Source of the DNA: an uncultured Gammaproteobacteria bacterium
GTDB lineage: Bacteria; Patescibacteriota; Microgenomatia; Daviesbacterales; UBA10151
DNA length: 64,000 nt
Assembly (NCBI GenBank): GCA_964625535.1
Contig: CAZVEX010000005.1
Location: 3,477-67,476 of the forward strand
Direction: 5' to 3'
Part shown: positions 28,964-52,709 of the stretch, piece after piece
Position numbering within the stretch: the first letter of the stretch is position 1
Layout of the letters: every line of letters begins with the position of its first letter
Made by a program: the position numbers and the translations under genes
The notes under the pieces: model-generated
The model's input: only the letters and a program-made list of their open reading frames with translations
Databases searched by the model: none
What the model was told of the DNA's origin: nothing

Positions 28964-29688
28964 ATTGCATCCTCCAGTTCCTCCACCACAAAAGGGTGGG
29001 TTTTGACAATCTGGCTACTTAACGGAGGAGGATTATTAATGGCAGGTTTTTCTTGGACAGCAGGCGGCGGGGTAGGAGTGGACACAATCGGTTTAGGAGC
29101 ATTGAGTTTGACCGGTTGCGGCAGCGGAGTAAATTCTTCTCCACTACCGTTGTAAGCATTGTAAAAAAGCTCCAGTAGTTCCTTGCTTTGAAGCTGGGTG
29201 GCTTTTAGGCCAACACGGTTTAACTGTCTGATAACCTGATCGCGCCTTGGCAGAAGCACTGTTTTGACTTTTTGGTATAAGGCTTCTCTGGTAGGGATAA
29301 TCCCCAGCTCCAGCTTGGACAGAGGAATGACCACGTAGAATTTCTTATCCAACACCTCGTTTTCCTTAATGGTGGTTTGGATAAACTGGCGGTACGATGT
29401 CATCATAGCCGAAAGCAGTGGGTTGGTCTGGGCTTTTTGGGCATGATCCAGCAGGTTCAGATATGAGCTGATATTTAGTCTTTCCGACTGGATCACAATC
29501 TGAATGGCAAAGGACAGCGAATTTAACATTTGGGCAAAGCTGGCAATAATCCCTATTTGTTCTCTTTCCGATAACAGGCCAAAATTAACTGCGGAAACCT
29601 GCATTACCAGGGCGCCGCCGCCGTCTTTTAAAAGCAGTATATTGTCTTTAATATCGCTAATTAACAAATGTTCCTGGGTTGTGCTCAT
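28960..29688 (-). CDS. VirB4 N-terminal domain encoded as a separate ORF (split VirB4)
   Basis: 242 aa. 'LLLKDGGGALVMQVSAVNFGLLSEREQIGIIASFAQMLNSL..IQIVIQS' matches the VirB4 N-terminal consensus. 242 + 592 aa equals a full-length VirB4. The stop and downstream start are in different frames. Confidence 0.55.
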   Translation of the reverse strand: MSTTQEHLLISDIKDNILLLKDGGGALVMQVSAVNFGLLSEREQIGIIASFAQMLNSLSFAIQIVIQSERLNISSYLNLLDHAQKAQTNPLLSAMMTSYRQFIQTTIKENEVLDKKFYVVIPLSKLELGIIPTREALYQKVKTVLLPRRDQVIRQLNRVGLKATQLQSKELLELFYNAYNGSGEEFTPLPQPVKLNAPKPIVSTPTPPPAVQEKPAINNPPPLSSQIVKTHPFVVEELEDAI

Positions 29689-30695
29689 GATGAACTCCCT
29701 GCCGCCTTAGCTGTTATTATCAAAGGCGGTAAAACCTGACCGCCCAATTCTACCTGCAAGACATCAAAATTATATCCTTCCTTTTCCAGCTCCAGGGTAT
29801 AAGTGCCGTTGGGCAGTGGAGTTGAACCGCTAAACTGGCCCAGCTTATTGGTTTTTAGCGCGCGGACCGGTAAGCCTTCTTTATCATAAATAACCGTTAC
29901 CACCGCTTCCAGGTAATTCCCGGCAAGATCTTTAATAATGCCGTTTATTACATTGGGAAAGGTGGTCAGGGCAACTTGAGCCTGTTTGGGTTTGACAGGA
30001 ATGACTACTTTGACTTTTTCTATTGGGAGAGGGGGCAGAGGAGGGGGAGGCTTAACTTCATCAAGCCGGCTTCTTATTTGTGAAGCCTGAGACACCAGTT
30101 TTTGCAGTTCGGACATGATCTCACTGACCTGCTGGCTGTAATCAATGGGTACAGGAGAGGGTTTGGTGGCTTCATTCCGGATTTGGTGCAAAGCTCGCTC
30201 CGCCTGGATAATTCTCACCTGCAGCCCTTGGGCCTGTCTGGCCAGATCGACTGTTTTGCCAAGATCCTCGGTTGTGGGAAGAGATGGTAGAGATGGCGGG
30301 GGCGGAGCGGGGGGAGCAGATTCTTTGACCGGCTGGGGTCCCAGACTGGCAACATACATCACATAACGGCTTTTAAAAAGCGGATTTTCCCGAAAACCCT
30401 GACCCATTTTTTTCCAGGACCTTTTTGTGGGAGAATAAATCGTTTTTAAAAAAGTGGCCACCCAGTAATCCAGGGGGCGGGAGGCAAAAGGCAAAAAGGC
30501 AAAGGCCAAACCCAACAGGCTGGAGATGATAATCAGCGGCCAGGCTACTAAGGGGTAATCCTTGGCCACAGTCACAAATATAAGATAGGCAAACCCCGCG
30601 CCCCCGGCCAAATACAAAAACTGTTTTAGGGTCATATCCCCTACCAGGTGGAATTGAAAAGAGGTGACATTTTGCGGAATAGGATGCGGCTCCAT
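29685..30695 (-). CDS. VirB3-like two-TM protein with Pro-rich linker, coiled coil and C-terminal Ig-like/CarboxypepD_reg-like beta-sandwich domain
   Basis: 336 aa. Two N-terminal TM helices directly upstream of VirB4 (conserved VirB3 position), 'APPAPPPPSLPSLP' linker, C-terminal 'NGTYTLELEKEGY'-type beta-sandwich. Confidence 0.4.
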   Translation of the reverse strand: MEPHPIPQNVTSFQFHLVGDMTLKQFLYLAGGAGFAYLIFVTVAKDYPLVAWPLIIISSLLGLAFAFLPFASRPLDYWVATFLKTIYSPTKRSWKKMGQGFRENPLFKSRYVMYVASLGPQPVKESAPPAPPPPSLPSLPTTEDLGKTVDLARQAQGLQVRIIQAERALHQIRNEATKPSPVPIDYSQQVSEIMSELQKLVSQASQIRSRLDEVKPPPPLPPLPIEKVKVVIPVKPKQAQVALTTFPNVINGIIKDLAGNYLEAVVTVIYDKEGLPVRALKTNKLGQFSGSTPLPNGTYTLELEKEGYNFDVLQVELGGQVLPPLIITAKAAGSSS

Positions 30696-30993: not shown

Positions 30994-32391
30994 ATGCTAG
31001 TAGAAGCGCCTCAATTTTCAACCACCCCAAAAGATTTAGCCGGTGGTCATTATGACCCTAACTTTCATTGGGAAGATACAATAGTCATTGCCAGACCAAT
31101 TGAGCGAATTTTACCCCCTCCAGAGGTTCAGGAACCGCAGTATCAACCAGTAGAGCTAGCAACCGGCTTGGTTATCAATCACCAGTTAAGAAAAGCCAAG
31201 TGGGATTCAGCCAAGGAAATAAAACGTTTTATATACGATATCAACGCAGGTTTAGAAAACGGGAATAATTTATCTGAAGCAGTCAACGCATCAGCAGGCG
31301 AGATTGTCAACAACATTGTGGCTTATTATAATGAGATTACCAGACAAAAACCCTTTTTAGTGCATACCAACAGATTTGATGAGTATAAAGGGCAAAGAAG
31401 GCTGGTGGGTAATAATGGTAGACCGGTGGTTGATGCCATCACAGCCGAGGAAAGAAAAGGCGCTGTTTTACAAGCCTCCCAAAAAATCGAAGCTGATTTA
31501 CTTGATGCTCCTAATAACTCCTTTATGGTCTTGATGAGTCCCGCCGGTTTAAATGGTTTTGTAGGTGAACATGGTCAAAGGTTGTCTCACTTAAATACCG
31601 AAGTAATGATTTTTTGGAAAAATCAAAACGGTTTGTTAAAAGGAGGTACGCTGGTTTTGGATTTAATGTACCAGCAAGCAGAAATGGTGATGGCGGATTT
31701 GGGAGTGACAAAAAAGCTCAGCGATGCAGATGAACTGGAAAGACTTGCCAATATTGTCAGAAACCCGATCTTATTTGCCTTTCCCCGCTCGGATATGACT
31801 CCTTTTGAGTATGTTTTAGATAAAATACTTGCGAGAAGAGGTAGCAGCGATTTCAGATTGCGTCAGCAAGACGGTAGCATAGAAACACGATCCATAGCAG
31901 AGGTCAGAGCCGATATCAGAGGATTTGATAAGATTTTGGAATTAACCGACGAGGAAGAAAAATGTCTTGCTGGATTCAGGCAGTTTATTTTGGATAATCA
32001 GGAAAGAGTTAACGAAAAAGGTGTTCAGCAGGCAATTATTAACAGGATGGGAAAAGCAGTCCTGATTATGGCAAGAATATATCTAGAAAGTAAAAATCCT
32101 GACCGAATGATCGCTTTTCATTCCCCCCAGCCTTCCGCATCTTATCACGAGGATAATTTTGATAGAGAAATTGCTTATCTTTTGACCAGAGCAGGTTGTC
32201 CGCCAGGGGGATCTTCAGGGTTGAGGGTTTTGAGTGGAATAAGTTTAGGTTCAGGTTTTTCCGGTTTCGGAGGAGGGGGAAAGAGTGAATGGTTTTGTAT
32301 TCGCTGTGGAGCTTGCGGAGCCTTGATTAATTGTGTGGTCAGGCCGGGAGAAAAATGCCCGGTTTGTCCGGCTGTTAGGCAATGCTCGTAA
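30994..32391 (+). CDS. Hypothetical protein with C-terminal Gly-rich segment and Cys-rich zinc-ribbon
   Basis: 465 aa. C-terminus 'CIRCGACGALINCVVRPGEKCPVCPAVRQC'. No recognisable catalytic domain. Immediately upstream of the 1400-aa gene. Confidence 0.4.
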   Translation: MLVEAPQFSTTPKDLAGGHYDPNFHWEDTIVIARPIERILPPPEVQEPQYQPVELATGLVINHQLRKAKWDSAKEIKRFIYDINAGLENGNNLSEAVNASAGEIVNNIVAYYNEITRQKPFLVHTNRFDEYKGQRRLVGNNGRPVVDAITAEERKGAVLQASQKIEADLLDAPNNSFMVLMSPAGLNGFVGEHGQRLSHLNTEVMIFWKNQNGLLKGGTLVLDLMYQQAEMVMADLGVTKKLSDADELERLANIVRNPILFAFPRSDMTPFEYVLDKILARRGSSDFRLRQQDGSIETRSIAEVRADIRGFDKILELTDEEEKCLAGFRQFILDNQERVNEKGVQQAIINRMGKAVLIMARIYLESKNPDRMIAFHSPQPSASYHEDNFDREIAYLLTRAGCPPGGSSGLRVLSGISLGSGFSGFGGGGKSEWFCIRCGACGALINCVVRPGEKCPVCPAVRQCS

Positions 32392-32460: not shown

Positions 32461-35400
32461 TTGTCGCAGAAATTGACAATTAGTTCACAAAAACCATACA
32501 CTAAAATGAGTAAAGAAATAATTATGGCAGAAACAGCAGAAGCGCCGGTTCAAGCTCCCGAAGGGGAGACATTCTCACCCGCAGATGCGCCGGATACGGC
32601 TGCCGGAGTTGAAAGATTTTTAAACCGAACCCCCCGTGATTTATCTGCCCTCGGGGATGTCCCTCCCGAAGATGCAGAAACTCAACCATCTGCGGATGGG
32701 GGTGGAACAGCAGCGGTAGGAGAAGGAGGAAGAGGTAGGGGTTCTGACGGCCCCGGCGGTAGAGGCCCGGAAGAACCACTTGAACCCCCAGAAGGATTCA
32801 GAAGATTTGATTGGGAGGGGCATTTAGAAGTACTGTGGAGTCCGGAGTTTAGAGCTGAAATGTGGGATACTGTAGAACAACTTAGCATAATTGAGGCTTG
32901 GCCGACGGAGCTAAAATATGATGGTGGTGAAACTGAGCGATATTCCAACGACCTTTTTAAATATTGGAAATATCTGGAATCTTTGGATAACAAAAGATCA
33001 TATGAAAGCAAACCATTTACCCCGGCAGATTTTGAGCCGATAAAGATTACTCCTGAAGTGCTGGAACAACCAGAAGACAAACTAACCGATTTACAACCAT
33101 TTAAAGTTGTGTTTGAACGTTATCAGAGTTCGCGTAATTCTGAAGGTGAAGTAAGCAGATATTTTAATGAGATGAGGAGAATGGGGCTTGTAAACGGCGT
33201 AGATGATTCTTTGAAAAGCATTTATGCCCAAATAATGCAGGGTATGGAAATGGTGACGGAGGAAGATGGTAGAGGAGCAAGGAGAAGAATGGATAAGGAT
33301 GAGATTATGGACAGGGTAGAAAAAGCCCGGGCAGCCATGGTTAGATCAGCAGAAAGAGCTCTGAAAACATTGAAGCGATCTGATTCAACGAAAGTAGATT
33401 TAGTAAAAATAGGCAAATTAGAAGGGGGATTGGAAGCCTATATTGAGCTGGGAGTTGGCAGATTTGACCTGTTGTTGACAGGTGGAGGATTGATGCAACC
33501 TCCGGGTATCGAAGGTGAATTCGACTTCAATATAGGGGATGTTGGGTCGGAAAGTGCTGTAGCCTTTAGAAGGTTGGCTGCTGAAGGAGAAATCTTCTGG
33601 CGTCCGACCTGGGCCAATTATTTTGAAGTATCTGCCAGAACTCCGCAGCAATTCCAGAGAGCAATAGAAACTTTTATCCGGTGGATGAGAACAGGTCTTG
33701 GAAAAGATCCTGAGGATCTTTTCCAAAAAGTAAACGGATTTAAAGAGGCTTTAACTGCTGCCGGTCAAAGAGCAGGCCCTGAAGCACAAGAATATACAGT
33801 AGGGTTAAGGTTGCTGCTGGAGATTTTAATGGGGGTAATAGGCGCTGATTTTTCCAATGAACAATATAAGGCTGCCAACTTCAAGGCTTTTTGGCAGTTT
33901 GCAGCAAAAAACGAAGGTCCTGACAGAATGCTTCAGCTGGCCAAAGCATTCAGAGGCATATTACCTGTAGTTTTACATAAATTTGATAAAGATATCACTA
34001 ATGAACTATTGTTTTCTCCTCATGGCTCAAGAGGGCAGTTAATGGGTAGAGAACGCAATGCTATCGAAATGGATGATCTGCAAAAGCAAAAATTGGCAAT
34101 ATTAACAGCACAGATAATGGGTATTGCTATGAAAGGTTATCATCCTGATGATGCTGAACAAATTCTGGATAGTAATATGTATAAGAGAAATTTGGCTGAA
34201 ATAACCAAGTTTAAATCAGATGAGTATTTTGAAAACTTGTATGAGGGGTTTGATCCGGCCGAGCAGGAAGCACTTCTTAGACAATTGGAAGCACACCCCC
34301 TCATACGAAATATTAAGTTTGCAAAGCTGGTTAATGAACAGGCTTTTATCGGGCCACTAACACCAGAACAAACACAATTTTATAAGGATTGGAAATCAGG
34401 CGATCTGATTAAATCTATCCAGGAAAAAGAACAAAACATCAAGTTCGCCAGATGGGTCCAAGCACAGATTGATAAAGGTGAGCAGCCTGAATTAAGCGGA
34501 AAAAGGCTACAAATTTATAATGACTGGAAAGAGAATGCATTGCCCCGTCCCCCAATTGCCTTATCACAGCTGCAAGCCTGGGAAAGACTGGATAGAGCCA
34601 GCAGGATTCAACAGTATCTGGCAGCAGGCAATGACCCCGATAAATTAACCGGAGAAGACAAAATCATGTATGAGGAGGCCAAAAATGTTGTTACTTTGGC
34701 TTATGAGCTGTATGGAGCAATGGGTGAAAAAGCCAAAAGGGGTGGAGGTGTTTTCCTGGTAGAGAGAAGCAAACCAGATGGTACTGTCATGAGAGATTTG
34801 CAGGGCCAGCCAGTGGTTGATTATATCCCGGTTCATTGGGCGGAAAAATTTGTCCATTTTGCCGAAAATTGGACCAAAGCTACTTATGGCGACCTGCCTG
34901 CAGCCGAATTGAAATATAGGGTAGACCAAGCTAGGAGAATGGCTACCTGGGCTTTAAAAACCTATGGATATGATGCAAAGCTATGGGATTTTACCCTACT
35001 CAGGAATGGTAAGCCTGTAGATCCTAATACTTTGGGTTATAGCAAATATGGTCAAGATCTTAGTAAAAGTGAAAGCGACCCAGTAGAAAGGATAGAAAGG
35101 TTTAGATATGCGCCTCCTGAAAACCCAAGAATTTTGGGTTATAACTCTAAAGGCGAGGAAGTAATCTTAGTTTTTGATGATGATGGTAGGCCTGTTGGTT
35201 TGGAGTTTGATCGAGATAACAAAGCTGTTATTTATGATAAGTTTTTTGTCAAAATAGATGAAAGAGGGAGACCTGTAGATCAAGAGGGCAATCCCGTCGC
35301 GCCTACCCAAACTAATCGTATTATTTTTGATAATTTTGATAAAGCAGAGCCAATGCTACTTAAAATACCCAGAGGGACTATAGATCCTAAGACCGGCAAA

Positions 35401-36663
35401 ATGATAGTACAGGGTGAGCCGGAGAAGGTGCATATAGGTTTTGATGCGATCACTCACCGCTTTCCCTCTCATCCTTATTCCCGCTGGACAGGTCATCCTT
35501 ATTGGGGTTATCAGGAAGAAGATACAGGATTGGTTTTAAGCCCCGAATCTTTTGATGCTGCCAGAAGAATCAAAAACGGCCAGTTGCGACCGGAAGATGC
35601 ACCGCCTCATGCAGTCCAGCTTTTAATAGTTGATCCAACTCTGGAACGCGTTGGCCATTTTGATTTAGAAAGCTTAGAAGCTGTGGTTGGCCTGGCTGCT
35701 GTAGAGGAGTCATATCAAGCTCACTGGAGAATTGGGGACGAGCTGTATATGAATTTTTTCCCTGAAGACGCTTCCCGTGTTAAAAACCGCACTGCTTATA
35801 TCTTGCAGGATCATGGCGGTTCTACTAAGCAGTGGTTTCACATTAGAGCCGAAGCTGCCCTGTGGCCTGATTCTAGAGTGAGAAGACTTAGGATTTTTAC
35901 TCCCTTTATACCTTTACCCTTTGCTTCCATGTCTGAAATGTGGGGGGCACCGGGAGGAGCGCTGGATGTTTTCAGAATGATGGGATATGAAAAGTACAAG
36001 ATGGTTGGACAGTTTGCCATGGATAAGTGGGTTAATCAAATAGATGGAGCCCAGGATGTGTACGAGAGTATAGCTGACTGGTATAGCCCACAGGAGAAGA
36101 GACTTAAAGAAGGGTTGGGTAGAAAACTTAACAATGAAGCTGATGTAAACCTAAAGAAGCATTATCAGCAGGTTGTGATAACTGGAGAACTTCAACCTGG
36201 ACCATCAACCCGTGAAGATATATATGAGCAGTATCTTGTTAGTTCCAGAGATTCATTAAATAGAGAGGAAGTTCTCCAGCAAAGAAACACGGTTCTAGGA
36301 TCTTTTATGAGGGGAGAACGTGCTCCTTTATGGCTGGAAGGTATAGATACTTTTCTAAAGGAGGACTTGGTGGACAAGAAGACCGGTAAAATTACCAAGA
36401 AGGGTGATTTTAATCCTAAAATTGATGAGATGAGAGATTCAGGTTCATCAAGACACACAAACAGGATATTTCACTATAGGTATGCCAGATTTATAAGGTC
36501 TCCAGCGGGACAAGCTTTATACCCTGATACGGCCAGGTATTATGCATTATTGGATAATCCTCTAGCTGATTATCCAAGGTTGGTTGAGGAATTTGCGGGA
36601 ACAGGGAAGAGCCCGGCACAAGTAACTGGATGGGATTGGTTAGACAGTAAAATGAATAATTAG
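32461..36663 (+). CDS. Giant hypothetical protein (1400 aa), Gly/Arg-rich disordered N-terminus, Trp/Tyr-rich, no TM helix or signal peptide
   Basis: Uninterrupted 4.2-kb ORF embedded antisense in the T4SS-like locus. N-terminal 'GGGTAAVGEGGRGRGSDGPGGRGPEEP'. No known catalytic motif recognised. Confidence 0.5.
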   Translation: MSQKLTISSQKPYTKMSKEIIMAETAEAPVQAPEGETFSPADAPDTAAGVERFLNRTPRDLSALGDVPPEDAETQPSADGGGTAAVGEGGRGRGSDGPGGRGPEEPLEPPEGFRRFDWEGHLEVLWSPEFRAEMWDTVEQLSIIEAWPTELKYDGGETERYSNDLFKYWKYLESLDNKRSYESKPFTPADFEPIKITPEVLEQPEDKLTDLQPFKVVFERYQSSRNSEGEVSRYFNEMRRMGLVNGVDDSLKSIYAQIMQGMEMVTEEDGRGARRRMDKDEIMDRVEKARAAMVRSAERALKTLKRSDSTKVDLVKIGKLEGGLEAYIELGVGRFDLLLTGGGLMQPPGIEGEFDFNIGDVGSESAVAFRRLAAEGEIFWRPTWANYFEVSARTPQQFQRAIETFIRWMRTGLGKDPEDLFQKVNGFKEALTAAGQRAGPEAQEYTVGLRLLLEILMGVIGADFSNEQYKAANFKAFWQFAAKNEGPDRMLQLAKAFRGILPVVLHKFDKDITNELLFSPHGSRGQLMGRERNAIEMDDLQKQKLAILTAQIMGIAMKGYHPDDAEQILDSNMYKRNLAEITKFKSDEYFENLYEGFDPAEQEALLRQLEAHPLIRNIKFAKLVNEQAFIGPLTPEQTQFYKDWKSGDLIKSIQEKEQNIKFARWVQAQIDKGEQPELSGKRLQIYNDWKENALPRPPIALSQLQAWERLDRASRIQQYLAAGNDPDKLTGEDKIMYEEAKNVVTLAYELYGAMGEKAKRGGGVFLVERSKPDGTVMRDLQGQPVVDYIPVHWAEKFVHFAENWTKATYGDLPAAELKYRVDQARRMATWALKTYGYDAKLWDFTLLRNGKPVDPNTLGYSKYGQDLSKSESDPVERIERFRYAPPENPRILGYNSKGEEVILVFDDDGRPVGLEFDRDNKAVIYDKFFVKIDERGRPVDQEGNPVAPTQTNRIIFDNFDKAEPMLLKIPRGTIDPKTGKMIVQGEPEKVHIGFDAITHRFPSHPYSRWTGHPYWGYQEEDTGLVLSPESFDAARRIKNGQLRPEDAPPHAVQLLIVDPTLERVGHFDLESLEAVVGLAAVEESYQAHWRIGDELYMNFFPEDASRVKNRTAYILQDHGGSTKQWFHIRAEAALWPDSRVRRLRIFTPFIPLPFASMSEMWGAPGGALDVFRMMGYEKYKMVGQFAMDKWVNQIDGAQDVYESIADWYSPQEKRLKEGLGRKLNNEADVNLKKHYQQVVITGELQPGPSTREDIYEQYLVSSRDSLNREEVLQQRNTVLGSFMRGERAPLWLEGIDTFLKEDLVDKKTGKITKKGDFNPKIDEMRDSGSSRHTNRIFHYRYARFIRSPAGQALYPDTARYYALLDNPLADYPRLVEEFAGTGKSPAQVTGWDWLDSKMNN

Positions 36664-36677
36664 AAGCGCGCCGAAAT

Positions 36678-38522
36678 TTATCCTCCCTGTTTATACGGCT
36701 TAATTTTTCCGCTGCTAGCATCCGAATAAATTTTGAATTTCTCTCTTATACTAGGTTGGTATTGAAGTGGGTTATATGTCCAGCCTGTTGGTTGGCCTGT
36801 TTTCGGATCAAACCCCGTTGGCATGTATGCAGGTGTTCCAAATAACCCTCTGGCTCTGGCAAGATTGCCGCTGGCAGCGCCAACTCCCTGCTGGGCCTGT
36901 TGGCCGTATCCTCTGCCGGCGGCAATCCCCCCTGAAATTTCCTGGCCGATCAGTTGTCCAGCTACTCCCACTCTGCCAATAGTTCTGGCAAGAATATCTG
37001 GAATAGCTGGGGTGGCAACTAATGCTCCAAAAGCCAGGAGCAGCTTGATGAAATCCAATCCCATTCCGCCAAAAAGAGGAAAGGTAAAAGTTCCTGTAAT
37101 CTCGACAGGGCCTTGAGCCCCCACTGTAGAAACTAAACCATTACTGACCGTAGCTCCACCTGAATCAGATACTTTAAATGGACCATACGGACCATTTGCA
37201 GAACCCAGCATAAAAGCCACAAAATAAAATACAGCTATCACAGCGGGGAATGCCAAAATATTAGCCAGCATATTTAATATCCAGCTGGTGGCAATCCCCT
37301 GTCTGCCTGGAAGGGCTGCTGCCAAAAATTGAAACGGGGCAGTGATTGTTAAAAATATGATGGTTAAATAAACGTTGATCAAGCGCATTAACAGTTTAAA
37401 CATGGCGTATAACAATATGGCTGTAACAACCAAAGCAAAAAGCGCACCTACTATTGCTGTGGGTCCTATAGGTCCTGTAGCTGTATTAAGAACGGCTAAG
37501 CCTTGTAGGGCTGCAATTATACCTTCACCAAATTTAGGTATAAGTTTGAGCCACTCAAAAGCCTGACCGGTTATTTGTGCACTAACTAAGGCTGCCAGTG
37601 TTACCAAAAGGCGCTGTGCATCATTATGAATATCATCCCAGAAAGAATTTAATACCTCAGTTACCTTTTCTTTATTAGCTACTGTGGCAAATTTACTAAA
37701 GATACTGATAAGATTTGGTTTGCGACCGGTGTTAGGATCCGGGGAATCTAAATCCTGAACTAAGTTTTGAGGGGTACCTCTGACAGTAGAAAAATAAGCC
37801 CCAACTATATTAGTACCAATAAAGGCTGTATCAGAAATTAAAGAGGCCAAGAAATAGGAAAAAGTGATTAAGATCAGGCCAATTACCAGGCCGGGTAAAG
37901 CGGCCTGGGCAGTAATGACTGTTTGGGGGTTGATTCTGTTTCTAAACATTACCATGAGTCCTATCACCACAAAAATAATGATCATAAATACATAAGAGAT
38001 ATTTCTGGATACCTGCCACAAAGTTAAAATCGGGTTTAACACCTGGGCTCCTGACCCGATCACCTGAGCTTTAGCCTCTTTGATAATTCCCAACCCCTGT
38101 CCCACCGATGCCAAATAATCAACCGTCCTAACAGGCGGGTTGGCATATAAAACGCCGATCAAAGAAGTGGTGGCTCCCAGTGCCCCTCCTCCCAGATTAA
38201 CCCGGGATAAAACCGGCACCGACTGTATGGCCCCTTGGGCATCTTTGGTAACCTGATAACTTAAACAGGGCTGGCCAATCACCGATGAACCAACAGACAG
38301 ACAGGAGAATGTATGGAATAAATTATGGACCAAAAGATCGGTGTAAATGGGGGAAGTAGGAGAAACGGTAGTTGGTAGGTTGTAGGTGGAGGCTTGCCCT
38401 GACGAAGGAAGGGTTTGGGCAAAAGCGGTAGGTACAAGCAGTAAGAATAAGGCAGTAAGAATAAAGCTTAAAAAAATCTTAATTCTGAATTCTAAATTCT
38501 GAATTCTAAAGTCTAAAGTCAT
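36678..38522 (-). CDS. VirB6/TrbL-like polytopic membrane protein with N-terminal signal peptide, periplasmic domain and Gly/Gln-rich C-terminal tail
   Basis: 614 aa, signal peptide, ~170-aa exported domain, at least 6 TM helices, C-terminal 'GQEISGGIAAGRGYGQQAQQGVGAASGN' tail as in TrbL. Follows the pilin array. Confidence 0.6.
   Translation of the reverse strand: MTLDFRIQNLEFRIKIFLSFILTALFLLLVPTAFAQTLPSSGQASTYNLPTTVSPTSPIYTDLLVHNLFHTFSCLSVGSSVIGQPCLSYQVTKDAQGAIQSVPVLSRVNLGGGALGATTSLIGVLYANPPVRTVDYLASVGQGLGIIKEAKAQVIGSGAQVLNPILTLWQVSRNISYVFMIIIFVVIGLMVMFRNRINPQTVITAQAALPGLVIGLILITFSYFLASLISDTAFIGTNIVGAYFSTVRGTPQNLVQDLDSPDPNTGRKPNLISIFSKFATVANKEKVTEVLNSFWDDIHNDAQRLLVTLAALVSAQITGQAFEWLKLIPKFGEGIIAALQGLAVLNTATGPIGPTAIVGALFALVVTAILLYAMFKLLMRLINVYLTIIFLTITAPFQFLAAALPGRQGIATSWILNMLANILAFPAVIAVFYFVAFMLGSANGPYGPFKVSDSGGATVSNGLVSTVGAQGPVEITGTFTFPLFGGMGLDFIKLLLAFGALVATPAIPDILARTIGRVGVAGQLIGQEISGGIAAGRGYGQQAQQGVGAASGNLARARGLFGTPAYMPTGFDPKTGQPTGWTYNPLQYQPSIREKFKIYSDASSGKIKPYKQGG
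38480..38520. repeat. Tandem heptamer repeat (GAATTCT/AAATTCT/AAAGTCT x~6) at the 5' end of the VirB6-like gene
   Basis: 'taattctgaattctaaattctgaattctaaagtctaaagtc' encodes N-terminal 'MTLDFRIQNLEFRI'. Same AGAATTC family as tsaD 7855-7877. Confidence 0.8.
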
Positions 38523-38571: not shown

Positions 38572-38898
38572 TTATGGGTTGGGTTGGCACCATGGCAAGC
38601 CCGCTCCTCCGCAAAGCGCTCTGATATCAAAAAATGTTACTTTTACTCCGGTCACCGCTTCAATAAGCTGCAGAATTATCCAGGCTATGGCCAAAAAAAG
38701 TATCCCCAATAAAGCCCAGGTGACAGTTAAATGGGCAGCTTGTATAGCCTTGGGTTCTCCGCCTGAAGTTAAATATTTGATTCCGGCCCAGGTAAGCACG
38801 ACCAAAGAGGCAATAAAGCCCAATCCTACTATGACGGAAATGCCTTTGGAAAAAACCTCTTCAATTTGTTGCAAACCGGCAGGTGAAGGATTGAGCAT
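38572..38898 (-). CDS. TrbC/VirB2-family pilin-like protein (paralog 1)
   Basis: 108 aa, two hydrophobic helices around 'WAGIKYLTSGGEPKAIQAAH' (family motif W..Y..GGxxE/K...A). Confidence 0.55.
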   Translation of the reverse strand: MLNPSPAGLQQIEEVFSKGISVIVGLGFIASLVVLTWAGIKYLTSGGEPKAIQAAHLTVTWALLGILFLAIAWIILQLIEAVTGVKVTFFDIRALCGGAGLPWCQPNP

Positions 38899-38934
38899 AT
38901 ATTAAGGTTAGCACTAATAGGGTATAAAGATCAA

Positions 38935-39261
38935 TTATGAGGGGCTGGGGTTGGGGGTGGGGATAACAATGTTGGTTATGTTCAATCCTGTGAATTGTCC
39001 GGCCACTCTGGCCAGGGCAAAAGCCACAGCCAAAACAGCCAAGCCAATCAAGGCATTGATAATTCTATTTCTGGCCTTGCTGACGGCCTCTTTGTCTCCG
39101 CCGGAAGTAATCCATTCAAACGCTCCCCAGATTAGCATTACCAGAACTACCAGCAGTCCCAGACTAAAAGCCAGCAATAGAAAATTGCTGATAAACTCGC
39201 CCAAACTGGCATAACCTTTACCTTGGGGAGGGGTAATAGTAATGGTAGGAGCCGGACTCAT
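38935..39261 (-). CDS. TrbC/VirB2-family pilin-like protein (paralog 2)
   Basis: 108 aa, 'LIWGAFEWITSGGDKEAVSKARNRIINALIGLAVL'. Compare RP4 TrbC '[28 protein letters not shown]'. Confidence 0.6.
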   Translation of the reverse strand: MSPAPTITITPPQGKGYASLGEFISNFLLLAFSLGLLVVLVMLIWGAFEWITSGGDKEAVSKARNRIINALIGLAVLAVAFALARVAGQFTGLNITNIVIPTPNPSPS

Positions 39262-39300
39262 AATCTAATCTTATTCACAAAACTATTTACTTGTCAAGCA

Positions 39301-39837
39301 TCACTTTTGACCTTCAAAAAACTTAAAGCCGGTAAATTGTCCCAAAACCTGGATAACTGCAAAGGTAATAGCCAAAAGCAAAATTCCCACCACAGCATTA
39401 ATGATTTTTTTTCTGGCCGAATCCAGTTTTTCCTTGTCCCCCTCCGAGGTCATCCAGTCCCATCCTCCCCAAAGCAGCATGAAAATTAACACTACCCCGG
39501 CAGCTGCATAAATTAAACCTACCAGATTGGACAAAAACCTGCTGATCCCCCCGGCTCCTGTGGGATCAGGGGAGGTAAAGGGTAACAGTTCCGGAGGAGG
39601 ATTGATAGTGCCGAAGGACTTACCAACTTCTGATTTTTCACAAGTACCTCGACTAGGATCAGCCGTGAGGGGTTTACAAACCAACCCTGCTTCACAATGC
39701 CCATTGGGATCTTTTATAAAACAGAAACCCGGTTCTTTTATATGATGAGCCAATACTACGTTAGCGTTGATCCCGAAAAACAGACAAATAAAGATCAAAA
39801 GAAAAAGTTTTTTAATCATACAAGAATATATTATCAT
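39301..39837 (-). CDS. Pilin-like protein with N-terminal signal peptide and Cys-rich extracellular extension fused to TrbC/VirB2 core (paralog 3)
   Basis: 178 aa, signal peptide, six Cys in 'CFIKDPNGHCEAGLVCKPLTADPSRGTCEK', then 'LWGGWDWMTSEGDKEKLDSARKKIINAVVGILLL' pilin core. Confidence 0.6.
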   Translation of the reverse strand: MIIYSCMIKKLFLLIFICLFFGINANVVLAHHIKEPGFCFIKDPNGHCEAGLVCKPLTADPSRGTCEKSEVGKSFGTINPPPELLPFTSPDPTGAGGISRFLSNLVGLIYAAAGVVLIFMLLWGGWDWMTSEGDKEKLDSARKKIINAVVGILLLAITFAVIQVLGQFTGFKFFEGQK

Positions 39838-39907
39838 TAATTTACAAAGCGCAACAACTAGTTAATGTAATTCTATTATAGGTTTGATAAATAGATAAGA
39901 TTATGGT

Positions 39908-40615
39908 ATGATAGATAAAATTATGAAAAGAGAAAGCGAGCTTAAATCAAGGGCAATACGTATTGGAGGTACTGTTTTAGTAACTACAGTTATGGGTTTA
40001 GCATTAGAGCAAGGTGTAAAAACGGTTAATGCGGAAACTCCTACGGCTACAGCCACTCCCACCAGAACGCCTACTCCTACAGGTACGCCTACCCCGGATA
40101 TAGAAATAGTTAATAAACAAGCGACTATTACAGCTTTAAACAAACAGCTTGAAAGGGCAAGACAACTAGCAGATCTGCGGGCAACCGAAGCTGCTGTTCG
40201 CAGGGAAATAGATAAAGTTATGGGTACGCCTCCGGCTACTTCTACCCCTACTGCTCAAGAGCTAGAAAGACAGAGGATTGAGCAAGCTGCTATAAAAGAG
40301 ATTGCAGATAGGTGGGGGACTGCCACAGCCCAGGCAGAATTAAGACCAGCTACACCTACTCCCTTTCCTCTTCCCCCAAGACCGGCCGGGCCCAAACCCA
40401 AGGAAGAACATGATCCGACAGGCGGTTTGGATATAGGCGGGTTAGTCCCTTGGGTGGGAGGAGTAGCCGCGCTTGTTACAGCCGTGGTAGGTTGGTTAAA
40501 CAGGGGCAGAATTCTGGGTTTATTTAGAAGAGGCGGTGGAGACGCTGATGTAGATGTAACTCCTGATGATGATCCTTTGAGACCAGTCCCTCCTAGACCG
40601 CCAACAACTACCTGA
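39908..40615 (+). CDS. Thr/Pro-rich hypothetical protein with N- and C-terminal TM helices (only plus-strand ORF inside the pilin array)
   Basis: 235-aa ORF, 'TPTATATPTRTPTPTGTPTP' repeats, central coiled coil. The mirror minus ORF 39901-40143 is low-complexity. Coding status uncertain. Confidence 0.3.
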   Translation: MIDKIMKRESELKSRAIRIGGTVLVTTVMGLALEQGVKTVNAETPTATATPTRTPTPTGTPTPDIEIVNKQATITALNKQLERARQLADLRATEAAVRREIDKVMGTPPATSTPTAQELERQRIEQAAIKEIADRWGTATAQAELRPATPTPFPLPPRPAGPKPKEEHDPTGGLDIGGLVPWVGGVAALVTAVVGWLNRGRILGLFRRGGGDADVDVTPDDDPLRPVPPRPPTTT

Positions 40616-40985
40616 TGATTTGGAATCCGGTTATCCCAAAAAGACTGGATAGTAAGAATTGTAACACCAAAAAGGCAGACATTAAAATAAAAAAGCCGAT
40701 AATGGCATGAGTTATCATTTGCCTGGCTCCCTCCATTTCTTCTTTATTGCCTCCTGCCCGCAAATACCGGAAAGCCCCAAAAAGAAAATACATGATGACC
40801 ATTACTGCTGTTATCGAAAAGGCCGGAGTGACCAGCTTTGATGTGGCCTCGCCCAAAGAAGTAATATTGCCAAAGCCGAATTTTTCACCAATGGGAATGG
40901 GAGATTGGGCAAGAACGGGAATAACCATTAACAGGTAACTGGTGACGAGAATATAAATTTTTAATTTTAAATTTTTAATTTTCAT
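40608..40985 (-). CDS. TrbC/VirB2-family pilin-like protein with signal peptide (paralog 4)
   Basis: 125 aa, 'FGAFRYLRAGGNKEEMEGARQMITHAIIGFFIL'. The 5' end 'MKIKNLKLKI' is encoded by an AAAATT(A/G)AAAATTT repeat. Confidence 0.6.
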   Translation of the reverse strand: MKIKNLKLKIYILVTSYLLMVIPVLAQSPIPIGEKFGFGNITSLGEATSKLVTPAFSITAVMVIMYFLFGAFRYLRAGGNKEEMEGARQMITHAIIGFFILMSAFLVLQFLLSSLFGITGFQIIR

Positions 40986-41033
40986 TCAAATTTTAATATT
41001 TCAATTTTAAATGTTTAAATAACAATAAGTAAA
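40960..41033. repeat. AT-rich degenerate tandem repeats (aatttt/ttcaaatttt units) flanking the Avd-like gene, downstream side
   Basis: 'ttttaattttaaatttttaattttcattcaaattttaatatttcaattttaaatgtttaaat'. Confidence 0.7.
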
Positions 41034-41393
41034 TTACTTAGTACTAAATGCTATTTTAGAAAAAATCAAGGTCAATTCTTGTGCTTCTTGCCATAATTTT
41101 CTGCACGCCTCTCTCGTCTCATTAATTGCTTTTGCAAGCAATCTTAGCCAATATTTTGTTTCTTTTGCTTCTTTTTTGCAAATAAAAATTTTGTTTTTGA
41201 AATCTTTTTTACTGCTTGCTCCGTTTGCTTCACAATAGTTAGCGCCTATGCTTGTTCCGGCTCTTAGGAGTTGATCTACTATAGGTATAGTAACTACATT
41301 TTTAGGAACATTTTTACAAAGTTCAATTATACTCTCTGCAAATGTTGCAGTTCTTTCTTCCAGATCATATTTTTTGTTTAATATTTTCATCAT
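41034..41393 (-). CDS. Four-helix-bundle protein of the 23S rRNA intervening-sequence / DGR Avd-like family
   Basis: 119 aa. 'DLEERTATFAESIIELCKNVPK...QLLRAGTSIGANYCEANGASSKKDFKNKIFICKKEAKETKYWLRLL' matches the IVS-protein/Avd family consensus. Inserted between pilin paralogs. Confidence 0.75.
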   Translation of the reverse strand: MMKILNKKYDLEERTATFAESIIELCKNVPKNVVTIPIVDQLLRAGTSIGANYCEANGASSKKDFKNKIFICKKEAKETKYWLRLLAKAINETREACRKLWQEAQELTLIFSKIAFSTK

Positions 41394-41440
41394 TTAAATT
41401 TGATTTCAAATTTCGAATTGTAAATTTCAAATTTCTAGAA
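41394..41440. repeat. AT-rich repeats (tttcaaattt units) flanking the Avd-like gene, upstream side
   Basis: 'ttaaatttgatttcaaatttcgaattgtaaatttcaaatttctag'. Confidence 0.7.
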
Positions 41441-41758
41441 TGGTACTCCTCCTCTGCCTGGAGTAAAGATTTCCCCGGCATATTTGGCCACAAAATAGGC
41501 TATCAAGGTGACCAACAGCCCAATCAAGGCCCATCTGATTCTGGCCCTGGCCTTGGCCAAACCTTCTTTATTCCCTCCGGCCATAATATACTGCCAGGCT
41601 CCCCATACCAGCCAGTAAAAGGCCATAAAAACCACCAGATAAAAGGCAATGTTTAAAATAGCTGATAATAAAGAACCCAGATCGGTGAACTTTTCTCCCA
41701 CAGGAGAAGGTTGAGGAATGTTTCCAAAACCAGGTAGTTGAATAGCTAATTTCATAGT
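41435..41758 (-). CDS. TrbC/VirB2-family pilin-like protein (paralog 5)
   Basis: 'LVWGAWQYIMAGGNKEGLAKARARIRWALIGLLVTL'. Start moved to the internal Met 'MKLAIQLPG' to remove the 65-nt overlap of the track ORF (41435-41833). Confidence 0.55.
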   Translation of the reverse strand, partial: TMKLAIQLPGFGNIPQPSPVGEKFTDLGSLLSAILNIAFYLVVFMAFYWLVWGAWQYIMAGGNKEGLAKARARIRWALIGLLVTLIAYFVAKYAGEIFTPGRGGVPF

Positions 41759-41768
41759 GACTCTAGTT

Positions 41769-42890
41769 TCATCGTCCGAATCCCGGTATTCCCAAAATAT
41801 CAAAGCCAATGATTTGCAAAAGCAGTACTGCAAATATTACAAACAACAGTCCAATTATGGCGGAAGTTAATCTCTCTCTTCCTGCCTGCAGGGTTTCCGG
41901 ATTGCCTGCAGAGGTGAGCATCTGAAATGCTCCGAGTAGCATCATCAAAAAGGCCAAACCTCCCCCTATCCCCAGAGCAAACTTCAATACATCCGCAATC
42001 AAATCCGCAGGCTCCGTATGAATACACCCAATAGCAGTTTTAATGGAAGGCTTAGATGGATCACAACTCAAACTTACTGCAGAAGTGCAAATTACACCTT
42101 GATCGCCGCATTTTTTTGGTTGTGTAATAATACCAGGATCTATAGAGCCTGACGGGATAGGTAATGGCGAAGGAGCGTTGACATCTAATGTTATCAAACC
42201 GCCACAAGAGTTATATTTACTACTCGTATCTGTACTAGCTACTTTGATTTCTTTTATTTCTCCAGGATTTCCATCTATCGGAATATCAACGAATTCGCCG
42301 AGTCCATGTTCATCGGTAGTTATTTTTTTTTCAACCAGATTCTTTCCTCCTACTAAAATAAGATAGGTTTGATTTTCTGATCCTAAAAATCTGATAGGTA
42401 TTAAAGCATTAGGTTGAACTTTTGTGGGGAGAGAAGGGTTTATAAGACACTGGCCTCCCAGAATTCCAACTTGGAATTTGATATCTGTGCAATATGGACT
42501 AAAATCTTTATCGCTACTGGTTTTACTTATTTCAATCTTTCCATTTTTTTCTCCTCTCTCAAACAATACCCCATTTTCGGACGTTTTAGGTATCTTAATT
42601 TGAAAGCTAGTTTGGTCAGAGTTAATTTGAATATATTCTGATCCCCAATCCACACCAAACATATCCGTTCTATACCTAATGTAGGGTCCATTGCCCTGAA
42701 TATATTGAGCCCCTCCGGAAGTTAAGTCGAATGTCAAGAGCATAGGGTCTGAATTTACAAAAAAAGGTTTAGATGTAAGAGTAATTCCTGTATTAAGGTT
42801 AGAACAGGGTTTAACATCAACGGCATAAACGAAAGGCGGTAAAAATAATAAATGTAAAAGTAACAATATAGCTAGGATTATTTTGAACAT
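41769..42890 (-). CDS. Secreted protein with ~290-aa extracellular N-terminal domain fused to a C-terminal TrbC/VirB2 pilin core (paralog 6; first gene of the array)
   Basis: 373 aa, signal peptide 'MFKIILAILLLLHLLFLPPFVYA', C-terminal 'LLGAFQMLTSAGNPETLQAGRERLTSAIIGLLFVIFAVLLL'. Confidence 0.55.
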   Translation of the reverse strand: MFKIILAILLLLHLLFLPPFVYAVDVKPCSNLNTGITLTSKPFFVNSDPMLLTFDLTSGGAQYIQGNGPYIRYRTDMFGVDWGSEYIQINSDQTSFQIKIPKTSENGVLFERGEKNGKIEISKTSSDKDFSPYCTDIKFQVGILGGQCLINPSLPTKVQPNALIPIRFLGSENQTYLILVGGKNLVEKKITTDEHGLGEFVDIPIDGNPGEIKEIKVASTDTSSKYNSCGGLITLDVNAPSPLPIPSGSIDPGIITQPKKCGDQGVICTSAVSLSCDPSKPSIKTAIGCIHTEPADLIADVLKFALGIGGGLAFLMMLLGAFQMLTSAGNPETLQAGRERLTSAIIGLLFVIFAVLLLQIIGFDILGIPGFGR

Positions 42891-42967: not shown

Positions 42968-44689
42968 ATGTTTGTCAAGAAGTTTATAGCAGTATTTTTA
43001 ATTGCTCTATCCTTACTACTTACTGCTTACTACTTACTACCAACGGTTCGGGCCGATGAAATTGAGGACTTGCAAAGACAGATTGATGAATTAAACAAGG
43101 CCCGGGAGCTTTCCGTTAAAGCTACCACCCCCCTGGAAGGTCAGCTTGATTCATTAAAGCGCCAGCTGGCCCAAATCCAAGTTCAGCTCGAAAATTTATC
43201 TTTAAACATCCAAAACAAACAAAGGCAGTTGGAAATCAGGGAAGAAAAATTAGCTTTGCAGCAGGCCCTTCTTGATAAAAGAGTCCGCTCCTATTATATC
43301 CGCTCCTACCTGGCAGACCCTTTACTGGTGATCCTTTCTTCCCTTCAATCGGGGGATCTTTTTAGGGAGCTGTCCTTCCGCCAGTCTGTGGCCAGGGAGG
43401 ATCGCCGGATCATTACCGCCGTCACTAGTGAAATGTTGGACCTGTTGACCCAAAAAGACAAACTGGAAAAAGACAAGTCTGTCATAGCCGGACTTCAGGT
43501 CGAGGTTGACAAAAATGCCAAATTTTTGGGAGGGGAAATCACCACAGCCAAAAAATACCAGGCCGAACTGTCAAGTAAAATTGCGAAGTTATCTGCCCGC
43601 CAGCAGGCCATTATTGCCCAGCGTCAGGCCAGTTTGAATCTTCCCACCTCTTTGGGGGCAGGGCCGCTTTTTTGTACGGATGATCGAAAACTGGATCCGG
43701 GCTTTTCTCCGGCTTTTGCTTTTTTCACTTTTGGCATTCCCCATCGCGTTGGCATGAACCAGTACGGAGCATACGGCCGGGCCAATGCCGGAGCAAATCA
43801 TGAGGATATTTTGCGCTCGTACTTTCAGGATTTTTCCTTTGAACAGCGGCCAAACATCAACATATCGGTTCAAGGATACGGTTCTATGCCTTTGGAAACT
43901 TATCTTTTGGGAATTTACGAGATGCCGGATTCTTTTCCGACAGAGGCCTTAAAAGCTCAAGCCATTGCTGCCCGATCTTATGCCCTGGCTTACACCAACA
44001 ATGGGGCAGGGGAAATTTGCACCACCCAACAGTGTCAGGTTTACAAAGGCGGCAATAAAGGAGGCAACTGGGAGCGGGCCGTTAATGAAACCAATGGGAA
44101 AACAATGATTTCAGGCGGATCAGTGGTTAAAGCCTGGTATTCGTCAACAGACGGAGGTTATACTTTTTCATCCGCAGATGTATGGGGATCGGGCACTTCT
44201 TTTACCAAAAGATCAAGGGATACAAACGGGGATATAGGTAGTTTCAGCGATCTTTTCTCAAAAGCTTATGACCGGGATTCGCCCTGTTTTTATGCGGCGC
44301 AGGGAGTAAGAAGCCAGTATGCCAAATCCGCTTGGCTAAAATTCGAAGAAGTAGCAGACATTGCTAATGTCATCATGCTGGTGAAGCAAGATTCCGGGGT
44401 TTCCCCACATATTTATCAGACCGATAAACCCAACCCTGAAGGTAATGAGACTTGGGATGGATCAAGAGTGAAACAGGAGCTGAAAAGCAGAGGAGGAAAC
44501 CCTTTTAACAGTGTTTCCGGAGTTTCCGTATCTGCGGATTTTGGATCGGGCATGACTACTTCGGTGACTGTTTCCGGGGACAGAGGATCAGAAACCTTTA
44601 ATGGGAGCGAATTTAAAAACTTCTTTAATCTGCGGGCCCCGGCCAATATCCAGATTGTGGGACCACTGTTTAATGTGGAGACAAAGTAG
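42968..44689 (+). CDS. SpoIID/LytB-domain peptidoglycan-active protein with N-terminal signal/TM and long coiled-coil region
   Basis: 573 aa. Coiled coil aa 30-210. SpoIID-like 'EALKAQAIAARSYALAYT...CTTQQCQVYKG'. Confidence 0.7.
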   Translation: MFVKKFIAVFLIALSLLLTAYYLLPTVRADEIEDLQRQIDELNKARELSVKATTPLEGQLDSLKRQLAQIQVQLENLSLNIQNKQRQLEIREEKLALQQALLDKRVRSYYIRSYLADPLLVILSSLQSGDLFRELSFRQSVAREDRRIITAVTSEMLDLLTQKDKLEKDKSVIAGLQVEVDKNAKFLGGEITTAKKYQAELSSKIAKLSARQQAIIAQRQASLNLPTSLGAGPLFCTDDRKLDPGFSPAFAFFTFGIPHRVGMNQYGAYGRANAGANHEDILRSYFQDFSFEQRPNINISVQGYGSMPLETYLLGIYEMPDSFPTEALKAQAIAARSYALAYTNNGAGEICTTQQCQVYKGGNKGGNWERAVNETNGKTMISGGSVVKAWYSSTDGGYTFSSADVWGSGTSFTKRSRDTNGDIGSFSDLFSKAYDRDSPCFYAAQGVRSQYAKSAWLKFEEVADIANVIMLVKQDSGVSPHIYQTDKPNPEGNETWDGSRVKQELKSRGGNPFNSVSGVSVSADFGSGMTTSVTVSGDRGSETFNGSEFKNFFNLRAPANIQIVGPLFNVETK

Positions 44690-52459: not shown

Positions 52460-52532
52460 TGCGCCCGTAGTTCAATGGACAGAACGCATGGTTGCGGTCC
52501 ATGTGGTTGGGGGTTCGATTCCCTCCGGGCGC
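52460..52532 (+). tRNA. tRNA-Arg (anticodon GCG; unusual isoacceptor)
   Basis: Acceptor GCGCCCG/CGGGCGC, D-arm GUUC/GAAC, anticodon arm CAUGG-UUGCGGU-CCAUG, T-arm GGGGG-UUCGAUU-CCCUC. Confidence 0.6.
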
Positions 52533-52538
52533 GCTCGA

Positions 52539-52624: not shown

Positions 52625-52629
52625 GCTTA

Positions 52630-52703: not shown

Positions 52704-52709
52704 CTAACT

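Follow-up and report, generated by a model that had tools for sequence, protein, structure and literature searches.

A six-gene array of pilin-like proteins beside a type IV secretion system in a Candidatus Daviesbacteria chromosome

Here we describe an array of six pilin-like genes, p1 to p6, on a 64,000-nucleotide stretch of contig CAZVEX010000005.1 (the window, meaning the whole stretch analysed). The window is an origin-proximal part of a Candidatus Daviesbacteria chromosome (candidate phyla radiation (CPR), or Patescibacteria) and carries a monoderm-type type IV secretion system (T4SS). Protein p6 is identical to the hypothetical protein HYZ06_00940 of Candidatus Daviesbacteria, and the window holds dnaA (21586-22920), dnaN, yidC and jag, with dnaA, dnaN and yidC lying 15-20 kb from the array. 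Only a handful of systems are shown to be essential to a cultivated CPR bacterium in its epibiotic life, and the T4SS is one of them; what it does has been described as completely unknown (PMC11665869). We conclude with high confidence that the six genes are the PF18895 pilin-like set of a Patescibacteria T4SS, made up of six non-redundant subunits.

The six genes share a C-terminal core of about 90 amino acids (aa) that forms a two-helix hairpin, and all of them are present as minus-strand open reading frames (ORFs) at the coordinates given in a preliminary description of the window, which had been made from the letters alone. Read in the direction of transcription, the array opens with p6 (41769-42890, 373 aa), which consists of a signal peptide, an exported region with its linker (~255 aa) and the C-terminal core. 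It is followed by p5 (41435-41755), a leaderless pilin-like hairpin of 106 aa when counted from its ATG; the ORF listed for it (41435-41833) begins at an upstream TTG and overlaps p6. Next come p4 (40608-40985, 125 aa), with a signal peptide and a pilin core as well as a short extension, and p3 (39301-39837, 178 aa), in which a signal peptide, a small four-Cys exported module and a Pro-rich linker precede the core. The array ends with two pilin-like hairpins of 108 aa each, p2 (38935-39261) and p1 (38572-38898), the latter leaderless and carrying a C-terminal Cys pair (C96 and C104). In the alignment of the six cores, which are 19-40% identical to one another (mean 29%), the hairpin pattern of the PF18895 type is visible as a pair of long hydrophobic helices with a short loop, polar or basic, between them, ~70 aa in all. 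The p5 protein has signatures of its own at both ends, a conserved N-terminus MxKLxLxLPG and a C-terminus GG(L/V)PF.

Seven paralogs had been claimed for this array, and we find six. When every six-frame ORF of the window is searched, without filters, using a hidden Markov model (HMM) built from the six cores, exactly these six genes match (E values from 1e-29 to 6e-40, with p5 at the top), and the next-best match has E = 0.88. When the cores are searched against the window with tblastn, the sole weak extra match (E 0.04) falls on residues ~174-231 of a 614-aa neighbour, outside 38572-42890. Neither search finds a seventh paralog, and tblastn shows no decayed copy; a weak match of p5 at 53496-53609 lies inside a polytopic permease-like protein and is a hydrophobic coincidence. 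The shared motif, in the form first written down, matches p2 alone, and its relaxed form matches precisely the six array genes, with no match in 50 shuffles of the window. Neither the repeat search of the window nor pairwise comparison found similarity or repeats at the DNA level among the paralog genes, and recent gene amplification or recombination is therefore rejected as their origin.

Five of the six genes score above the gathering score of PF18895 (T4SS_pilin; 26.6 bits), with 29.7 bits for p1, 41.9 for p2, 31.8 for p3 (residues 96-156), 41.2 for p4 and 42.1 for p6 (residues 295-361), and p5, scored on the longer TTG ORF, falls just under it with 25.9 bits. PF18895 is the only family common to all members in Pfam scans and matches 39 of 39 diverse orthologous cores (best E 6e-14). 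The T4SS pilin-like identity put forward in the preliminary description is thus borne out, with all six genes matching PF18895 and T4SS genes present in the same window. The model it had named, PF04956 (TrbC/VirB2), fared otherwise: none of the six window paralogs matches it at E <= 1, and three of the 39 orthologous cores do so weakly (best E 0.0015). Among NCBIfam families, only NF045849, the 'pilin-like conjugal transfer protein' Mbov_0395 of a Mycoplasma integrative and conjugative element, is matched by all six, at 15.7-27.2 bits against a cut-off of 40. The Mbov_0395 family resembles the window genes in being an ~80-aa hairpin of a monoderm T4SS with a related VirB4, and differs from them in being a single gene within a mobile element. 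The family to which the array belongs is very large, with 84,377 matches at E <= 1e-3 and 16,389 at E <= 1e-10 in an HMMER scan of 1.84 billion cluster representatives. A tblastn search with p2 against 72,556 plasmids gave no match, so that p2 has no close relative on a catalogued plasmid. Fold searches with the hairpin returned no VirB2 or TraA match, helical hairpins scoring too low in them to weigh either way.

Three genes of the secretion machine lie 8-11 kb from the array on the same, minus strand. They encode a VirB4-like T4SS ATPase of the CD1110 family (27185-28963; NF045971, 387 bits against a cut-off of 325; PF19044 TraG P-loop, E 1.5e-26), a TrsD-like protein that corresponds to the split-off N-terminal domain of VirB4 (28960-29688; NF041427 TrsD, E 1e-7, together with the N-terminal parts of VirB4 models, all below curated cut-offs) and a member of the PrgI (VirB3-like) family whose C-terminal domain is a beta-sandwich (29685-30695; PF12666, 29.3 bits against a cut-off of 27). 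Among the ~40 window ORFs scanned with Pfam, none has a relaxase domain or a VirD4-type (coupling protein) domain.

Arrays of this kind are already described for the phylum, and the window is one more instance. Quiñonero-Coronel 2025 reported 441 arrays of 2-11 pilin genes, ~25% identical, in 383 assemblies, most abundant in Microgenomatia and Saccharimonadia (PMC12102498). The window fits that description, Daviesbacteria lying within the Microgenomates group: it has six genes, interrupted by single non-pilin genes at the p5/p4 and p4/p3 junctions, in a chromosomal location with virB4 within ~20 coding sequences and dnaA nearby. The preliminary description had called a multi-pilin array unusual, which holds for classical T4SS and not for Patescibacteria, where arrays of 2-11 genes are published (PMC12102498; PMC10633639). 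In the T4SS cluster of the CPR bacterium Southlakia epibionticum ML1, Wang 2023 described a series of essential predicted pilins; in Table S2 of that work a TrbL/VirB6 gene has six PF18895 genes (SEML1_0014-0019) next to it, all six scored essential, and two of the six (0018 and 0019) also match PF04956 (PMC10633639). The two loci are alike in having six tandem PF18895 genes beside a polytopic protein of VirB6 type (a candidate in the window) in a chromosomal T4SS with PrgI and VirB4, where the numbering of the chromosome starts and near dnaA. They differ in that the ML1 pilins are all small (~125-185 aa), apparently with leaders, and none of them carries a 255-aa immunoglobulin (Ig)-like ectodomain; moreover, the VirB6 gene of ML1 lies ahead of the array, whereas the polytopic gene of the window comes after it.

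Six orthogroups in a fixed order

To put the array into evolutionary context, we compared it with 80 related loci, one per GTDB species, which together with the window make 81 sequences. The loci were retrieved via similarity to p6, so that a p6-type gene is present in each by construction, and they come overwhelmingly from metagenome-assembled genomes of Daviesbacteria and other Microgenomates. Several, titled 'uncultured Gammaproteobacteria', appear to be mislabelled; their gene order is the same as in Daviesbacteria loci.

Exactly six pilin ORFs occur in 54 of the 81 sequences. In the 51 clean six-gene arrays the order by transcription is p6-p5-p4-p3-p2-p1, followed by a polytopic VirB6-like candidate, and with orthogroups assigned by best BLAST match to the window paralogs rather than by phylogeny, the best match at each position is the same window paralog in 38-49 cases (p5 is second in 47, p4 third in 46, p3 fourth in 49, p2 fifth in 38 and p1 sixth in 48). 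The cores of orthologs are on average 56-71% identical, compared to the 19-40% between paralogs, and every orthogroup is marked by an invariant signature and a leader status of its own. With leaders called heuristically, by reading the sequence and from hydropathy, a signal peptide is usual in the orthologs of p6, p3, p4 and p2, and absent from those of p5 and p1; the p1 orthologs have a median of 6 aa ahead of the core, and 37 of 53 have the C-terminal Cys pair. Judged by these comparisons, the six genes are old and non-interchangeable, neither recent amplifications nor a variant reservoir. The conserved order of the six orthogroups also favours the idea of major and minor pilins raised in the preliminary description.

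There are departures from this pattern. In the window, p2 begins at a mature-like sequence (MSPAPTITITPPQGKGY...), where its orthologs, including that of the closest relative (L008), have a signal peptide of ~25-30 aa; the segment that would code for the leader is absent here, because just 39 nt lie between p2 and the p3 stop codon. In the distant genomes L052, L055, L058, L060 and L072, arrays have 7-13 genes, grown by duplication of the middle, p3-like genes, with the genes at both ends (p6 and p5; p2 and p1) kept.

The exported domains of p6 and p3

The p6 gene opens with a signal peptide read from its sequence (residues 1-23, MFKIILAILLLLHLLFLPPFVYA; 42822-42890, minus strand), and a hydrophobic region resembling a signal peptide is found in 73 of 79 p6 orthologs by a hydropathy heuristic. 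Its exported N-terminal region (residues 24-280; 42051-42821, minus strand) comprises two Ig-like beta-sandwich domains (~27-145 and 146-236) and a Pro/Cys-rich linker, and its C-terminal pilin core (residues 281-373; 41772-42050, minus strand) comprises the beta-hairpin 'TAIGCIHT' and a helix-loop-helix. This layout is that of an AlphaFold2 model built with 50 homologs (mean predicted local distance difference test (pLDDT) score 84.8; a single-sequence model with a pLDDT of 44 was discarded), in which the signal peptide is followed by two beta-sandwich domains, the Pro/Cys-rich linker, the conserved beta-hairpin, whose Cys276 and Cys289 are near-invariant, and a helical hairpin with core helices at 294-325 and 331-365.

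The fusions of pilin cores to extracellular N-terminal domains that had been proposed for two of the genes are real, with the p6 domain modelled as two Ig-like beta-sandwiches. In p6, the exported domain comes to ~255 aa with its linker. The six Cys residues ascribed to the p3 module are present, two of them within the signal peptide, leaving a mature module with four (C39, C48, C54 and C66). Across p3 orthologs, 20-285 aa lie ahead of the core, and the four-Cys pattern recurs in 8 of 38.

Whereas the p6 core is the best conserved of the six, with a mean identity of 71% across the arrays, the region in front of it is hypervariable between species. All 120 of the 120 best p6 homologs have an N-terminal region of 160-465 aa followed by the C-terminal core, and compared to p6 their cores are 57-92% identical and their N-terminal regions 23-40% identical or unalignable. 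Among 69 species-level p6 orthologs, all 2346 pairs of cores align (median identity 61%), whereas only 128 pairs of N-domains (5%) align at E < 1e-3, and the N-domains fall into 28 clusters. Of 15 pairs of p6 proteins with core identities of 85% or more, 10 have N-domains that cannot be aligned. The flanking genes are 46-67% identical, which makes the p6 N-domain exceptional at its own locus. Diversification between species is found mainly in the ectodomains of p6 and p3.

The p6 Ig-like domains resemble Bap, SiiE, RbmA, invasin and MG/CBM folds in fold searches, in which such matches are generic. A Pfam scan of the 69 N-domains gave eight isolated weak matches, including Big_1, Big_3_5, MG2, Y_Y_Y and transthyretin-like domains, and these domains are essentially uncharacterised. 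We consider the p6 Ig-like domain a candidate host-recognition adhesin because of its export, its fold class and its extreme variability between species set against a conserved anchor. The 2025 survey of Patescibacteria T4SS detected no adhesins (PMC12102498), and this published failure to find another one adds to the case for p6. Large N-terminal domains also occur outside p6, on p4-type (756 aa) and p3-type (434 aa) proteins of L039, a p1-type protein of L029 (304 aa) and a p5-type protein of L006 (323 aa).

A proposed assembly and its alternatives

We propose that each array protein sits in the membrane as a hairpin of two helices, both termini lying outside the cell and a short basic loop on the cytoplasmic side. 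We derive this topology from the signal peptide and Cys-rich ectodomain that precede helix 1 in p6, p3 and p4, which would place the N-terminus outside, the loop inside and the C-terminus outside again, and the C-terminal Cys pair of p1 and most of its orthologs agrees with an external C-terminus. The six non-redundant subunits would then act as the VirB2-like pilin set of the chromosomal, origin-proximal T4SS. By analogy with VirB2, the machine of VirB4, TrsD and PrgI, together with the polytopic protein, would extract the hairpins from the membrane and build from them a single heteromeric filament or conduit at the surface, which would make contact with the host bacterium. Within it, the conserved core of p6 would make the assembly contacts while its rapidly diverging or replaced Ig-like domain would be displayed outside as a host-recognition adhesin, functionally replacing VirB5 or PrgB, and p3 would carry a smaller variable exported module. 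The analysis shows to which family the genes belong, the context of their locus, their conserved order, how core and N-domain differ in conservation and the fold of the N-domain; polymerisation, a stoichiometry of the subunits, a location of p6 at the tip and host binding are what we infer for such an assembly. We treat the six proteins as one assembly because of the fixed set of orthogroups, the individual essentiality of the ML1 pilins, the linkage to the polytopic protein and the existence of natural hairpin fusions.

These fusions take two forms. In three loci p5 and p4 are read as one ORF in the standard code (L049:4549-5220, L056:5313-5945 and L057:4061-4810), and the top matches in the search of cluster representatives are single proteins with 2-16 tandem cores (P0121, P0122, P0123, P0124, P0127, P0136 and P0151), of which examples are a protein of 552 aa with a signal peptide and 6 cores and one of 1775 aa with 16 cores. 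That hairpins are naturally fused implies that they act together. In the literature searched, three features appear to be unreported: an ectodomain on the first pilin, whose core is conserved while its Ig-like domain is hypervariable, the fixed order of six orthogroups, and hairpin polyproteins. The text of the 2025 survey makes no mention of N-terminal fusions, a fixed orthogroup order or polyproteins (PMC12102498).

The proposed set resembles the classical VirB2/TrbC/TraA pilins (PF04956; the T-pilus of Agrobacterium tumefaciens and the F-pilus) in that both are small hairpins, their two helices linked by a short basic loop, and are encoded at a T4SS locus. Classical pilins are encoded by a single gene per system, have a long leader, are often cyclised or acetylated, and work with a diderm machinery that includes VirB5, VirB7, VirB9 and VirB10, whereas the window paralogs are unmatched by PF04956 or Ti VirB2, three of them are leaderless and two or three carry ectodomains. 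In working principle, though in nothing more, there is an analogy to the major and minor pilins of type IV pili and to the pseudopilins of type II secretion (for example GspG-H-I-J-K). There too, one membrane-anchored subunit is represented by about five or six divergent paralogs whose gene order is fixed, and a hydrophobic assembly segment is conserved while the exposed domains vary. Some of their minor subunits carry adhesin domains at the tip. There is no homology between the two sets, and fold and machinery are unrelated: the type IV pilus and type II proteins possess just one helix, at the N-terminus, undergo cleavage by a prepilin peptidase and are assembled by PilB/GspE ATPases. As for the role proposed for p6, contact of a T4SS with its target cell is also the business of VirB5, at the tip of diderm pili, and of PrgB, the adhesin of Enterococcus pCF10; neither has a sequence or fold relation to p6, and both are separate proteins, whereas the p6 adhesin would be fused to a pilin core.

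Taken as a whole, the six-subunit VirB2-like set that forms a heteromeric filament or conduit with p6 as its adhesin is the explanation we favour, with moderate confidence. Its most specific form, a heteromeric filament outside the cell with p6 as the host adhesin, we put forward more tentatively, as a reading somewhat short of probable. The generalisation that, in Daviesbacteria and related Microgenomates, a surface structure of the T4SS carries its own host-recognition module, as a hypervariable, often replaced tandem Ig-like domain on the most conserved of six obligatory subunits, is more doubtful again. If it is true, swapping of the p6 Ig-like domain sets which host bacterium the episymbiont attaches to and feeds on, and a six-subunit heteromeric filament of the VirB2 type would be an architecture unknown in classical T4SS. 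The six-subunit set, the subunit with a conserved core and a hypervariable domain, and the natural fusions lead to testable hypotheses, namely heteromeric assembly and a host-specificity determinant borne on a pilin.

Several points weigh against this explanation. No Patescibacteria T4SS has been seen to make a filament, and the pilus that such monoderm systems might form is termed remarkable but unproven in a 2025 review. With true VirB2 the connection is tenuous: PF04956 leaves the window genes unmatched (E <= 1), hhalign of the profile A3 against VirB2 of A. tumefaciens C58 (L081:44614-44979) returned a probability of 0.7%, in what is a weak test with a single-sequence template, and a profile of the 39 cores searched against PDB sequences found no pilin and only designed helical proteins, at E >= 0.014. 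In contrast to classical VirB2, p1, p2 and p5 lack a signal peptide; a pilin subunit that bears a 255-aa domain may be difficult to fit into a helical filament of the VirB2 type; and polyproteins of 6-16 hairpins suit an assembly embedded in the membrane no less than a filament. The statement 'six genes, p6 first' is conditional on the presence of a p6-type gene, ORF starts were taken mechanically, and the 614-aa protein is a VirB6 candidate by position only.

Some of these points feed the alternative that survives best, in which no extended pilus is made and the hairpins stay with the cytoplasmic membrane, inside it or against it, and make up a hetero-oligomeric T4SS ring, channel or stalk comparable to a c-ring-like bundle, with the p6 and p3 ectodomains projecting into the wall zone as anchors or scaffold. 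It gains from the 2-16 tandem hairpins in one polyprotein chain, the p5-p4 fusions of L049, L056 and L057 and the three subunits without signal peptides. It also gains from the monoderm MPF-FATA systems, the source of the Patescibacteria T4SS, which have no pilus (PMC12102498), and from several ML1 pilins whose best structural match is the ATP-synthase c subunit or another helical-hairpin domain (Wang 2023, Table S2). With both termini outside, however, covalent linkers would by themselves be no bar to assembly into a filament; there is a family bridge, if a weak one, to TrbC/VirB2 (three of 39 orthologs and the ML1 genes 0018 and 0019); and a hypervariable exported Ig-like domain suits a host-facing structure better than an internal scaffold. 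We regard an assembly confined to the membrane as unlikely, though worth serious consideration.

Much less probable is that the paralogs are interchangeable, only one of them being in use at any time as an antigenic, phase or host-range variant of a single pilin, in the way suggested for the VirB2 paralogs of Bartonella and Anaplasma. The low identity between paralogs (19-40%) and the expansion to 8-13 genes by p3-like duplication in more distant genomes would suit it, and the 2025 survey suggested a role akin to antigenic variation, in that versatility might help in adapting to different hosts (PMC12102498). For the paralogs themselves we disfavour that suggestion, since six orthogroups that keep their order in 51 arrays, with orthologs far closer than paralogs (56-71% compared to 19-40%), argue for non-redundant subunits rather than antigenic variation. 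The invariant signature and signal-peptide status of each orthogroup, the lack of DNA repeats or other recombination substrates, the individual essentiality of all six ML1 pilins and the covalent fusion of some paralogs stand against it as well. The antigenic diversification that the preliminary description had entertained is disfavoured likewise, as the fixed order speaks against paralog turnover, and diversification is seen only in the p6 N-terminal domain, between species. That the shared core belongs to an unrelated family of small membrane proteins (holin, bacteriocin-immunity protein or transporter subunit) that merely lies near T4SS genes is highly improbable. In its favour, short hydrophobic hairpins weakly match many membrane families (DctQ, DUF898, MatE), no solved pilin is matched by sequence and tblastn finds no plasmid homolog; against it, PF18895 is the sole family matched by all members, NF045849 is the only NCBIfam family shared by the six, if below its cut-off, and the genes are linked to T4SS genes both in this window and in S. 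epibionticum ML1.

Genes within and around the array

Directly downstream of p1 and co-oriented with it lies the gene of the 614-aa polytopic membrane protein (36678-38522, minus strand), which has a signal peptide and a conserved Cys74/Cys86 pair and comes after p1 in 51 loci. From this position it is a candidate for a VirB6-like assembly platform. PF04610 (VirB6/TrbL) does not match the window protein and matches one of 25 orthologs (E 0.0015), PF04956 matches three of the 25, and both hhalign against Ti VirB6 and a profile search of PDB were negative. VirB6 is scarce or absent in Microgenomatia according to the 2025 survey (PMC12102498), and this 614-aa gene, which stands behind the array in all 51 of those loci, offers a concrete candidate for the one that escapes profile searches there. 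Residues ~174-231 of the protein weakly resemble the pilin hairpin.

Divergent from p6 lies a gene for a 573-aa cell-wall enzyme with an N-terminal coiled coil and a SpoIID/LytB domain (42968-44689, plus strand; PF08486, 72 bits; TIGR02669, 140.6 bits). It occupies the same position in 65 of the 80 loci, together with genes for a bPH_2 protein, a 597-aa unknown protein and SmpB, and may be either a stand-in for VirB1 that opens the peptidoglycan or merely part of a conserved gene order.

Two genes interrupt the array itself. At the p4/p3 junction, a plus-strand gene (39908-40615) encodes a Pro/Thr-rich membrane protein of 235 aa that is not a pilin and has no Pfam or NCBIfam match; the GC content rises to 53% there, and a promoter-like site lies at 39884-39912. 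The gene divides the array into two transcription units, and a homolog of its product is found in only one of the 80 loci (L023). This junction is an insertion hot spot, occupied in 12 of the 51 arrays (L003, L005, L006, L011, L015, L017, L022, L023, L024, L026, L030 and L071) by 0.8-8.7 kb of mostly opposite-strand genes, which include AAA_14+DUF4143 ATPases and unknown proteins of 245-290 aa.

Between p5 and p4, a minus-strand gene (41034-41393) encodes a four-helix-bundle protein annotated as '23S rRNA intervening sequence protein' and resembling Avd (PF05635, 67.9 bits; TIGR02436, 84.3 bits). It is AT-rich, with a GC content of 28-31% compared to 42-46% in the pilin genes; homologs occur in 14 loci, and similar same-strand ORFs of 118-135 aa fill the p6/p5 gap in ~20 of the 51 arrays. 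It looks like a recurrent cassette, probably accessory or mobile, and not like a pilin gene. An Avd-like gene and a hypervariable domain in one array raised the possibility that a diversity-generating retroelement is the origin of the variability, which we reject: the window has no repeats apart from a tRNA pair and shows no template/variable repeats, and no reverse transcriptase domain was found in the scanned ORFs.

The block of the pilin genes and the VirB6 candidate is separated from the PrgI-TrsD-VirB4 block by two genes on the opposite strand, of 1400 aa (32461-36663, plus) and 465 aa (30994-32391, plus), neither of which has a Pfam or NCBIfam match; homologs are found in only 7-10 loci, at ~28% identity. 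Further away, the left end of the window holds genes for type I restriction-modification (HsdM and HsdR; 1987-5747, minus strand), and the tRNA-like direct repeat pair, of 75 nt and 79% identical, is located at 52461-52705 (plus strand).

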